NCBI GenBank assembly: GCA_039091535.1
Contig: JAWCLW010000001.1
Coordinates: 145,073-209,072, forward strand
Source: Candidatus Aenigmatarchaeota archaeon
Lineage (GTDB): Archaea > Aenigmatarchaeota > Aenigmatarchaeia > GW2011-AR5
Direction of reading: 5' to 3'
Length of the DNA: 64,000 nucleotides
Part shown: one piece after another, positions 2,456 through 53,837 of the stretch
Layout of the letters: every line of letters starts with the position of its first letter
How positions within the stretch are numbered: the first letter of the stretch is position 1
Notes under the pieces: model-generated
Databases searched by the model: none
Seen by the model: the letters and a program-made list of their open reading frames with translations, nothing else
Told to the model about the DNA's origin: nothing
Program-made: the position numbers and the translations under genes

Positions 2456-3844
2456 TTAATAATTCTTTTCAAAATATTTTTCTTTAATAAATGCAGAAAG
2501 CTCTTTATCTTTTTTAATAGCTCTCCAAAAATCTTTGTGCTCTAATATTTTTGCCTTCCTCATTACTTTTGCTATATATGTTGGTATACCTTTTTCAATT
2601 AGAGATTCTTCATTATTTTTTATTAATTTTTTTAAAAAATCTGTTGCACTTATAAATTCTCTTCTCCTTTCAACAACCCATCTTATCCCTTCTATGTAAA
2701 TAAGAGAATTTTTATCATTCTTATATTTTTTCACAAATTCTTCTGAATGTTTATGTGAAAATATTGGTGGTCCTATCATCTTATTAACTTGTGGTAATCT
2801 CCATATCTCTAACTCAAAAATTAAGATAATATGCCTCTTCTTTACAAATTCATGAGCTCTTATAGGATAAAAATTATTGTGTATAAGCATGCTTTCTATT
2901 CTTTTTACTGCTTTTCTTATCTGTGGATATAATACATCCTCTATCACATCAGGTCTTTTCATAATAATGGCAACGAATTTTGTTTCACGACTATGCATAT
3001 TTTTTATCTGTTTTTCTGTAAGTGGTTTTTTCTCTTTTGGGAAAAAATAATTTATACTTGGTTTTGCAAGAAATCTTTTTGAAAAATTAATAAATTTAAC
3101 ATAATTATTTGCATTAAGTACAGAAGCCGCATTTCTGTTTATATCTGTTGGATCTATCAAAATTAATGGTTGCCTCGGAAATTTTTCTATATCTATTTTA
3201 TCTGATTCTATATGTCTAAAAAATATAATAGTTGGCGGCTTCCAATTTGTTGCCTCTTGCAAAACATTTTCAAATGTACCATACTTTAGAATCAATAACT
3301 CACAGATGTAACCAGAGAATCCGAGATGCTTTGCATCACTTCCATAAACACCAATACCTTTACAAAACTGTTTTAATATTCTTACTTCATCTCGCTTTTC
3401 CTCATCAAGATGCTCTATTATATAATTAAGATGTAATGGCGATCTATCAACCGCTGATTTAATATGTTCTCCTGATTTCATAGAATAACAAGGGACGATA
3501 TCAACATGGAAATCCGAAATTATAGCATGTGTATATGGATGTTCCGCATATTTTATTTTATATAAACCGTGCATCTCCTCTACAATTCTTTTTCCAAACT
3601 CCAAGCCCCTTTTCTCTAATTCTTCTCTTGTAGTATTATCAGGAAATATTATAAATAAATCTATGTCATGATCTCCGCGAAGCCACGTAAATTTTCCGAT
3701 AGATCCGCATACAATACATTCCAATCCACTAATAGTTTTTGCTATACGCACAAGCTCTTGAACAAATTTCTTTATTTTTTCTTCTTCTTGTTTTGTTGGT
3801 TTTATTCTATTCAGAACAGATTTTTTCACATCCTCTATTTGCAT
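2456..3844 (-). CDS. cca: CCA-adding enzyme (archaeal class I tRNA nucleotidyltransferase)
   Basis: 462 aa. The N-terminal nucleotidyltransferase motif GSIGKFTWLRGDHDIDLFIIFP and the overall length and layout are typical of archaeal Cca. Confidence 0.9.
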   Translation of the reverse strand: MQIEDVKKSVLNRIKPTKQEEEKIKKFVQELVRIAKTISGLECIVCGSIGKFTWLRGDHDIDLFIIFPDNTTREELEKRGLEFGKRIVEEMHGLYKIKYAEHPYTHAIISDFHVDIVPCYSMKSGEHIKSAVDRSPLHLNYIIEHLDEEKRDEVRILKQFCKGIGVYGSDAKHLGFSGYICELLILKYGTFENVLQEATNWKPPTIIFFRHIESDKIDIEKFPRQPLILIDPTDINRNAASVLNANNYVKFINFSKRFLAKPSINYFFPKEKKPLTEKQIKNMHSRETKFVAIIMKRPDVIEDVLYPQIRKAVKRIESMLIHNNFYPIRAHEFVKKRHIILIFELEIWRLPQVNKMIGPPIFSHKHSEEFVKKYKNDKNSLIYIEGIRWVVERRREFISATDFLKKLIKNNEESLIEKGIPTYIAKVMRKAKILEHKDFWRAIKKDKELSAFIKEKYFEKNY

Positions 3845-4563: not shown

Positions 4564-4695
4564 GGGTCCGTAGCTCAGCCTGGTGCATGGTTGTTGAAGG
4601 ACGCATTGCAGGAAAGAGCATCGGCCTCTTATAAGTCTTTCAAAAGAAGGTTTGAAGAAAGCCGGGTGTCGCGGGTTCGAATCCCGTCGGACCCA
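4564..4695 (+). tRNA. tRNA-Lys(CUU) with two introns (D-loop and canonical 37/38)
   Basis: Acceptor GGGTCCG/CGGACCC and D-stem GCTC..GAGC. Anticodon stem TCGGC/GCCGG with loop CT-CTT-A. T-arm GCGGG-TTCGAAT-CCCGT. The cloverleaf needs removal of a ~28-nt insert in the D-loop (~4585..4612) and a 28-nt insert after position 37 (4632..4659). No CCA is encoded. Confidence 0.8.
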
Positions 4696-4727: not shown

Positions 4728-5156
4728 TTAAATTTTACAGATATCACACCCTGACTTGCATTCATCCTTATACACATTACAGCAATTTTCTAATTCAACA
4801 CCTACATTTTTATGACCATTGCATATTTCGCACATACCTGCACATTTTATCTCATCTAACTCCAATTTCTTACATTCTTGACATAATGAATATAGGCATG
4901 AAAATTTATCATGATCTTGACCAAACAAAAATTTACAAGCATCTAGGAATTTATCAAACTCTGTATCATATGTAACAGACCAGTCACATTTCCTTTCTTT
5001 ATATTTCTGGCATTCGGTATAAAATATCCTGTTTGCTTCACTCTTAGTCATCTGTTGTGTTGTTTGAAACATAAAAAAATAGATTAGTGCACTCAAGACT
5101 AATGCTGCAACTATCAAGATTACAATCATAGACAATGATAATGAAATGCCCTTCAT
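4728..5156 (-). CDS. class III signal peptide (type IV pilin-like) protein with Cys-rich C-terminal domain
   Basis: The ATG at 5156 gives MKGISLSLSMIVILIVAALVLSALIYFF.. (K-G followed by ~22 hydrophobic residues). The C-terminal ~110 aa carry 14 Cys. The track's extension to 5360 is Arg-rich and overlaps the upstream gene. Confidence 0.7.
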   Translation of the reverse strand: MKGISLSLSMIVILIVAALVLSALIYFFMFQTTQQMTKSEANRIFYTECQKYKERKCDWSVTYDTEFDKFLDACKFLFGQDHDKFSCLYSLCQECKKLELDEIKCAGMCEICNGHKNVGVELENCCNVYKDECKSGCDICKI

Positions 5157-36540: not shown

Positions 36541-36746
36541 GCCCCTGTAGTTTAGCCTGGACAAGGAAGACAAATTAAGGGTTTTTCTTCCTCTATTATC
36601 TTTTCCTTAATAGAGAGGAAAAGATAAAAGAAGAAAAACATAAATTATCCTCTGTAAAGAATGAGAGGTTGCGGACCTCTTGACCCGGGTTCGAAAACAA
36701 ACCATTTTCCCTTTAAATGGATTTGTAGAATTTCCCGGCGGGGGCA
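36541..36746 (+). tRNA. tRNA-Arg(GCG) with two non-canonical introns (~91 nt after the D-arm; ~37 nt in the T-loop)
   Basis: Acceptor GCCCCTG/CGGGGGC. Anticodon arm AGAGG-TTGCGGA-CCTCT (36664..36680; anticodon 36671..36673). T-arm CCGGG-TTCGAA[insert ~36696..36732]T-CCCGG. A large hairpin-rich insert (~36572..36662) separates the D-arm from the anticodon stem. The D-arm boundaries are uncertain. Confidence 0.7.
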
Positions 36747-53496: not shown

Positions 53497-53715
53497 ATGG
53501 GTATTATAATAAATGGTATTGGTATTGGTTTTTTTATAGCAATTTTTGTATCGATGTATGTCGATTTTTTCTTTGATATAATACTACCAATTTTTATAAT
53601 ATATGGAATACTTGCACCACTTATTTCTGCGATTGTATTGTTATTATTACTTTATATAAGAAAAGAAGAGAAAAAAAGGGAAGGCCTTCAGTGGTGGGAA
53701 GAAAAAAAGGAATAA
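53497..53715 (+). CDS. small membrane protein
   Basis: 72 aa with two hydrophobic helices and a charged tail. Its stop abuts the tRNA-Thr 3' end on the other strand. Confidence 0.35.
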   Translation: MGIIINGIGIGFFIAIFVSMYVDFFFDIILPIFIIYGILAPLISAIVLLLLLYIRKEEKKREGLQWWEEKKE

Positions 53716-53837
53716 GCCCCAGGAGGGTAAATCGATAGAAGTATATTCAATACTTCAATTCTCGAACCCTCGACCTTCTGCTTACGAGATTCGCCGATTT
53801 TTATCTCAGACGCTCTACCATACTGAGCTACTGAGGC
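53715..53837 (-). tRNA. tRNA-Thr(CGU) with two non-canonical introns (anticodon stem/loop junction and T-loop)
   Basis: On the minus strand: GCCTCAG-TA-GCTC-AGTATGGTA-GAGC-G-TCTG[~17-nt insert ~53789..53805]-CTCGTAA-GCAGA-AGGTC-GAGGG-TTCGAG[~32-nt insert ~53729..53760]A-CCCTC-CTGGGGC-T. The anticodon is at 53784..53786. Confidence 0.75.

Follow-up and report, generated by a model that had tools for sequence, protein, structure and literature searches.

Introns in archaeal tRNA genes canonically lie at position 37/38. Position 59/60, within the T-loop, has been listed among the non-canonical sites (PMC4090602), and the closest described example is that of ARMAN-2 (Ca. Micrarchaeum), where pre-tRNA-Cys(GCA) carries a 13-nt intron at this site that was cut in vitro by the cognate EndA, and pre-tRNA-Pro(GGG) carries strict-BHB introns at both 53/54 and 59/60 (PMC3239211). 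The EndA of that organism is a three-unit epsilon2 enzyme with its own specificity loop, the ASL (PMC3239211, PMC3488258). [quoted passage not shown] Three introns is the maximum per tRNA gene given in two of these papers (PMC4033280, PMC3239211). On the enzyme side, a survey of DPANN archaea states that an L3 (Nanoarchaea/ARMAN-2) loop in alpha4-type EndAs correlates with more disrupted tRNA genes (Kaneta 2018, PMC5829648), and the loop of the N. equitans type is suspected of broadening EndA specificity, according to Hirata 2012 (PMC3488258).

Here, we have analysed a window of 64,000 nt (contig C1, 145073-209072) from a DPANN archaeon of the Aenigmatarchaeota, the assembly of which comprises 674 kb in 14 contigs and is estimated to be 88% complete. 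The G+C content of the window is ~24-38% per 2-kb segment and mostly 25-34%. All five of its tRNA genes are interrupted and none is followed by CCA, as the original prediction had stated, and the cca gene with which this was linked does encode a class I CCA-adding enzyme (Table 1). In three of these genes, those for Arg, Thr and Val, the T-loop is split by an insert, and we put at about 0.88 the probability that the three inserts are archaeal BHB introns lying between T-loop nucleotides 59 and 60. Since this site has been published and the ARMAN-2 tRNA-Cys precursor has been cleaved there in vitro (PMC3239211), such introns are already known as a kind. The ARMAN-2 case resembles ours in its DPANN host, its T-loop site, its BHB or relaxed BHB junctions and its short introns. 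What is added here is the heavy use of the site (about 43% of tRNA genes in this genome, compared with a few 59/60 genes in ARMAN-2), its spread over two DPANN phyla and its pairing with a loop-bearing, alpha-type EndA that is without the catalytic Lys.

Table 1. tRNA genes of the window, their predicted introns and the genes of two processing enzymes (window positions unless a contig is named).
Feature	Position	Strand	Basis or detail
CCA-adding enzyme, class I (archaeal)	2456-3844	-	Pfam PF01909 + PF09249 + PF21133
tRNA-Lys(CUU)	4564-4695	+	rebuilt; ARAGORN on spliced product
Lys intron 20/21	4585-4614	+	
Lys intron 37/38	4632-4659	+	
tRNA-Arg(GCG), two introns, CCA not encoded	36541-36746	+	cloverleaf rebuilt; spliced product is Arg(gcg) by ARAGORN
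Arg D-loop intron, near 20b/21, ~93 nt	36564-36656 (+/-2 nt)	+	BHB scan
Arg T-loop intron, 59/60, 37 nt	36696-36732	+	relaxed BHB; fold and pair count
tRNA-Thr(CGU), two introns, CCA not encoded	53715-53837	-	rebuilt; spliced product accepted by ARAGORN
Thr T-loop intron, 59/60, 32 nt	53729-53760	-	relaxed BHB; fold and pair count
Thr intron 30/31, 5' strand of anticodon stem, 17 nt	53790-53806	-	strict hBHBh': H=4, h=3, h'=3
tRNA-Gly(CCC)	57129-57234	-	rebuilt; ARAGORN on spliced product
Gly intron 37/38	57164-57183	-	
Gly D-loop intron	~57206-57219	-	
tRNA-Val(GAC), one intron, CCA not encoded	57287-57378	+	rebuilt; spliced product accepted by ARAGORN
Val T-loop intron, 59/60, 19 nt	57346-57364	+	strict hBHBh'; T-arm minimum-free-energy fold is the BHB itself
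EndA, 211 aa, one N-terminal and one catalytic domain	C7:90500-91135 (locus L028 1474-2109), outside the window	-	

None of the five tRNA genes is visible to conventional searches of the window, where both ARAGORN in its default mode and Rfam at the gathering threshold return no tRNA at all, and genome-wide the Rfam cut-off is passed by 13 loci against the at least 35 tRNA genes present. When introns are allowed, ARAGORN labels the Lys(CUU) gene Ser(tga) and the Gln(CUG) gene at C7:71713-71797 Pyl(cta). Unspliced, the Val gene also receives no ARAGORN call. Once the predicted introns are removed in silico, ARAGORN recognises the five genes of the window, together with nine from elsewhere in the genome, as standard tRNAs that lack introns and have the anticodons expected.

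Reading the three T-arms base by base confirmed that each has an intact 5-bp T-stem and a T-loop split after position 59, and the approximate lengths of ~37 and ~32 nt given earlier for the Arg and Thr inserts became exact at 37 and 32 nt, with the 19 nt of Val unchanged. The Arg arm runs from T-stem CCGGG (36685-36689) through TTCGAA (36690-36695) and the insert to T60 (36733) and CCCGG (36734-36738); that of Thr reads GAGGG, TTCGAG, the 32-nt insert, A60 and CCCTC, and that of Val reads GGCAG, TTCGAA, the 19-nt insert, T60 and CTGCC. Folding of the junctions, which had been proposed as a check, together with a count of their pairs gave a BHB in each case, strict in Val and with three of the four central pairs in Arg and Thr. 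The Val junction is formed by TTCG/CGAA between the bulges AAA and TAT, followed by an h' helix of 4 bp if the terminal T-G is counted, of which GTT/AAC are three Watson-Crick pairs. In the central helix of Arg, TTC pairs with GAA and G57 faces an A, while in Thr it is T54 that faces a T and the next 3 bp are formed. With a single mismatch among their four central pairs, these two junctions count as relaxed, a 4-nt bulge lying opposite one unpaired base. The hairpins named in the original prediction are both present, GAAGTAT/ATACTTC in the Thr intron and CCATTT/AAATGG in that of Arg, where the 6-bp hairpin follows a 5-bp h' at the junction and a 1-nt bulge. The prediction had also held that relaxed BHB recognition would be needed. 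While Arg and Thr are relaxed, the position does not in itself require this, as Val and, genome-wide, 10 of the 15 T-loop introns form strict 3-4-3 hBHBh' motifs. The D-loop junction of the Arg gene is also of a relaxed, HBh' type (H=4 with two G-U pairs, h=0, h'=3), and the D-stem GTTT/GAAT is kept in Arg orthologues.

The rule by which these junctions were read derives from the canonical 37/38 site, where exon positions -5 to -2, counted from the 5' junction, pair with intron positions -6 to -3 and the cut falls after the second base of each 3-nt bulge. Applied to the T-loop, it pairs T54-T55-C56-R57 with an intron YGAA at -6 to -3, makes the T-stem the outer helix and leaves 58, 59 and the first intron base in one bulge and the last two intron bases and base 60 in the other. 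The site is a geometric twin of 37/38, as each falls between the sixth and seventh of the seven bases in a loop on a 5-bp stem. We searched the whole genome for places where TTCRA follows a T-stem able to pair and where the 3' strand of the acceptor is rich in G+C and has its 5' complement upstream. This recovered ~35 tRNA genes, 15 of them (about 40-43%) with a T-loop split at 59/60: Arg GCG, Val GAC, Thr CGU, Trp or Arg(CCU), Ser UGA, Leu CAA, Leu UAG, Pro UGG, Pro CGG, His GUG (two genes), Asn, Phe, initiator Met and Gly UCC. As the search made no use of the central helix or of h', the pairing in them is evidence independent of it. All four central pairs are present in 10 of the 15 introns and a single mismatched pair in the other five, Arg and Thr among them. 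Over the 15 junctions, 92% of the pairings in the central helix and 87% of those in the intron helix h' are formed, and all four pairs of h' show compensatory changes on both sides. Base R57 covaries with intron base -6 (G-C in seven, A-U in five, unpaired in three). Across the whole structure, pre-selected T-stem included, 93% of cells pair, compared with 67% in shuffles; 0 of 500 shuffles attain the values seen in the genome, and a shift of the partner by a single column reduces the pairing from 93% to 44-53%.

Orthologues were sought by comparing the predicted mature sequences with genomes of the same order. The Val(GAC) gene is intron-free in four of these (G201, G044, G028 and G299), with the T-loop TTCGAAT; in G018 its sole intron is in the D-loop, and in G134 its T-loop is split at this same site by another, longer intron. 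Val(CAC) of G040 carries a 33-nt intron at 59/60. For Thr(CGU) there are orthologues that have no T-loop intron, those of G118 and G171 being fully intron-free and that of G171 having an identical acceptor stem. Arg(GCG) is intron-free in G268 and G018, several other copies have D-loop introns, and the gene of GW2011_AR5 has its intron at 53/54 instead. As the intron-free orthologues are otherwise collinear with the predicted products, the inserts are precise, lineage-specific additions. When metagenomes were searched for Val alleles that have or lack the intron, only unrelated tRNAs with the same T-arm and acceptor were obtained. Two further Arg(GCG) orthologues, L214 (G173) and L221 (G305), carry an insert of ~15 nt that separates the 5' strand of the acceptor from the D-stem, in the order GCCCCTGTA / GCATATGCAGGGAAA / GTTTAGC, which looks like an intron near positions 7-10.

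The enzymes required to process such transcripts are represented in the genome, which encodes RtcB and a single alpha-type EndA. Among the EndA types to be looked for, the original prediction had offered a heterotetrameric or an epsilon2 form as examples, and the gene found here is probably neither. No second subunit was detected by phmmer and hmmsearch over all six-frame ORFs of this genome (88% complete), nor by phmmer and hmmsearch in G106, a member of the same family (1.01 Mb, 2 contigs, 90% complete), and the enzyme is probably a homotetramer, judged by its gene content. The complete chromosome of a distant member of the Aenigmatarchaeota (G331, CP070804.1) has, besides its alpha-type gene, a second EndA paralogue (365758-366954, +) of at most 399 aa from stop to stop, with two matched EndA domains, which is absent from the family of the window. 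The best solved relative of the EndA is the alpha4 enzyme of M. jannaschii. The closest relatives overall are labelled Aenigmatarchaeota or GW2011_AR5, and the 72-86% identity across the 120 closest points to strong purifying selection.

Two features set the sequence of this enzyme apart. Between the catalytic Tyr and His lies a basic loop, GVQLKKGPKSAKEH, which aligns without gaps to the alpha-subunit loop of N. equitans, GVIPKKGKRSEREH; M. jannaschii is six residues shorter there. The enzyme differs from the epsilon2 EndA of ARMAN-2 and the (alpha-beta)2 EndA of the Thermoproteales in having a single alpha-type gene, here with a Nanoarchaeum-type loop. It resembles the EndAs described in the available text of Kaneta 2018 in its single alpha-type gene, its basic loop inserted by the catalytic His and the many disrupted tRNA genes that accompany it, whereas that text gives a survey-level correlation and names neither a 59/60 preference nor loss of the catalytic Lys. 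The second feature concerns the Tyr-His-Lys triad, of which the Tyr and His are present while an Ala occupies the position of M. jannaschii K156 and A. fulgidus K287, within a motif AHNIRAR where characterised EndAs read AHS.RK. The same Ala is found in all ~49 Aenigmatarchaeota-type EndAs fetched; the enzymes of Woesearchaeota and Nanoarchaeota keep the Lys. Given this replacement, the chemistry of the enzyme is not that of the textbook, and one candidate to substitute for the missing residue is the [KR]-G-P-K that is invariant within the inserted loop. The EndA gene is immediately preceded on its own strand by the genes for tRNA-Asn and tRNA-Phe (C7:91457-91704, -), which are separated by 3 nt and have two introns each, one of them at 59/60.

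Having set out this evidence, we consider how else the inserts might be explained. The reading nearest to ours is that they are introns of the same kind, cut one base away (at 58/59 or 60/61) in some genes, which we regard as unlikely. At the level of the product these registers partly coincide, as cuts at 58/59 and 59/60 give an identical tRNA-Val, while cuts at 59/60 and 60/61 give an identical product for Thr and for four genes with a T-initial intron, and the minimum-free-energy fold of Thr does place the helix one base out of register, where a cut made according to the rule would leave a loop of 9 nt. However, 59/60 is the sole register that leaves a 7-nt T-loop in all 15 genes under the 3-4-3 pattern, and the T-loops of the orthologues are likewise 7 nt long. 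If the inserts were instead retained, so that the mature tRNAs carried an enlarged T-loop, then 19-85 nt would have to be accommodated at the T-loop/D-loop elbow, which they would destroy. This we find very improbable, since the 3' ends of the introns covary with base 57 as a splice motif demands, orthologues exist that do not have the inserts, and the genes affected include the sole copies found of several tRNAs, among them initiator Met, Phe and Asn.

That neither Rfam nor ARAGORN calls these loci is what would be expected of decaying pseudogenes struck by random insertions, but their stems are all intact, their spliced products are canonical, they are the sole copies found for their anticodons and hundreds of genomes show the same arrangement, such that this is to us the least credible of the explanations considered. 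We hold out hardly more hope for removal by some route other than EndA and RtcB, be it self-splicing or another nuclease. The loss of the canonical catalytic Lys is the one observation that favours such a route; against it, inserts of 19-85 nt could not accommodate a group I or group II core and bear the EndA recognition motif, the EndA is conserved among its closest relatives to the degree given above, and the ARMAN-2 EndA has been observed to cut an intron at 59/60 (PMC3239211).

If the inserts are BHB introns at 59/60, as we favour, a simple scheme for their removal may be envisaged. In the precursor, the T-stem would act as the outer helix and the nearly invariant T54-T55-C56-R57 of the T-loop would be held with the intron YGAA in the 4-bp central helix, flanked by the two 3-nt bulges described above. 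The single alpha-type EndA, equipped with its Nanoarchaeum-type basic loop, would cut within both bulges, after which the exons would be joined by RtcB, and only then would the T-loop be able to fold; the 3' end of the tRNA would be provided by the CCA-adding enzyme. We infer the cleavage and ligation, the exact register of the cuts and the quaternary state of the enzyme from the motif and from the genes present. Since all tRNAs have TTCR in common, an intron that ends in YGAA-NN is compatible with each of their T-loops. This invariant sequence would offer an equivalent target in each gene, which would explain both why 59/60 should be a hot spot and why related introns should appear in unrelated tRNAs.

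The T-loop introns are part of a considerable intron load. By our reconstruction, 35 genes hold ~58 introns and only five genes are intron-free. Alongside the 15 introns at 59/60, there are ~20 in the anticodon loop, ~17 in the D-arm, three at 29/30 or 30/31 and three in the variable arm, these positions outside the T-loop being the less certain. The automatic intron solver rewarded extra introns and over-split complex genes, and so the solutions were re-scored and the remaining genes solved by hand. The tRNA-Leu(UAG) gene (C1:66015-66322, -) seemingly has five introns, in the D-loop, at 30/31 and 37/38, in the variable arm and at 59/60, and tRNA-Ser(UGA), ~7.8 kb past the end of the window (C1:216867-217139, -), seemingly has four, namely a D-loop intron of ~53 nt, 14 nt at 37/38, ~33 nt in the variable arm and 85 nt at 59/60. 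While the Thermoproteales share with this genome the use of many positions, the presence of several introns per gene and the similarity of introns between unrelated tRNAs, the maximum stated for them is three introns per gene.

The original prediction described the inserts as unrelated in sequence, which is true of the three in the window; across the genome, T-loop introns form sequence families that extend over unrelated tRNAs. The similarity is significant, with a score of 42 between the Ser UGA and Gly UCC introns and of 35 between Ser UGA and His, compared with a maximum of 28 after shuffling, and it agrees with the intron transposition put forward for Thermoproteales (PMC4090602). A hairpin CYTTYYTT..AARRAARG occurs at five sites on both strands, four in tRNA introns and one in a coding region, the last of which we take as chance; besides T-loop introns, it is found in the 37/38 intron of Ala(CGC). 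There is a broader proposal, which is tentative and which we would rate a little short of even: that 59/60 is a main landing site of mobile BHB families in Aenigmatarchaeota and Nanoarchaeota, with TTCR as a universal exon half that would open every tRNA gene to one and the same intron, and that these introns, including those with relaxed junctions, may be served by a Lys-less homotetrameric EndA whose basic loop provides breadth and perhaps catalysis. The spread of introns between genes is suggested by their similarity.

Several other genes deserve mention in their own right. The initiator tRNA-Met gene (C8:27154-27325, +) has three introns and the anticodon loop CCCATAA, which places C33 where U33 is near-universal. 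A contig of 7.7 kb carries two distinct tRNA-His(GUG) genes ~550 bp from each other (C4:4287-4396 and 4943-5075, -), both with 59/60 introns, which may reflect either duplication or an artefact of binning. In elongator tRNA-Met (C1:4038-4152, -) and in a gene that reads as Trp(CCA) or Arg(CCU) (C1:227984-228236, -), the introns of the anticodon loop contain TGATGA, which is box C-like, and a segment with complementarity to the region of the anticodon, and these introns may act as methylation guides of the box C/D type.

The use of 59/60 extends well beyond this genome. We built a covariance model of the junction (R1), which finds seven of the 15 sites in the genome itself with no false match at E<1; as long introns are lost, the counts that it returns are lower bounds. 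Matches were obtained in 93 of the 301 genomes of Aenigmatarchaeota, which represent 67 of 151 genera, in 93 of the 301 of Nanoarchaeota and in one of the 61 of Altiarchaeota. The matches inspected are 59/60 introns of 14-54 nt, most with four central pairs. Those from Aenigmatarchaeota are mostly of 15-24 nt, with a few of 28-44 nt, and form perfect hBHBh' motifs in many different tRNAs. Ten further loci were inspected, six of them from genomes labelled Woesearchaeota or Nanoarchaeota with introns of 14-54 nt at the same site. Scanning directly, under stricter criteria, gave at least nine 59/60 genes in G106 and ~13 in G331, on a chromosome of 742 kb. Judged by these predicted junctions, 59/60 is not particular to the window but a hot spot throughout the lineage, and it has been published for another DPANN archaeon, ARMAN-2, too (PMC3239211). 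A text search that was blind to the string '59/60' found no paper on the frequency of T-loop introns in Aenigmatarchaeota.

Because standard finders miss interrupted genes, the tRNA sets of DPANN archaea are badly under-counted. Automatic annotations of such genomes will carry errors of the types seen here, with Lys given as Ser and Gln as Pyl, and intron-aware searches are needed wherever tRNAs are claimed to be missing or completeness is estimated by counting tRNA genes. The removal of ~58 introns, some with relaxed junctions, appears to be left to a single small EndA lacking the catalytic Lys, which makes this an attractive enzyme to study. Orthologous genes differ in both the presence and the position of their introns, and these archaea therefore offer a natural system in which the gain and loss of BHB introns may be followed.
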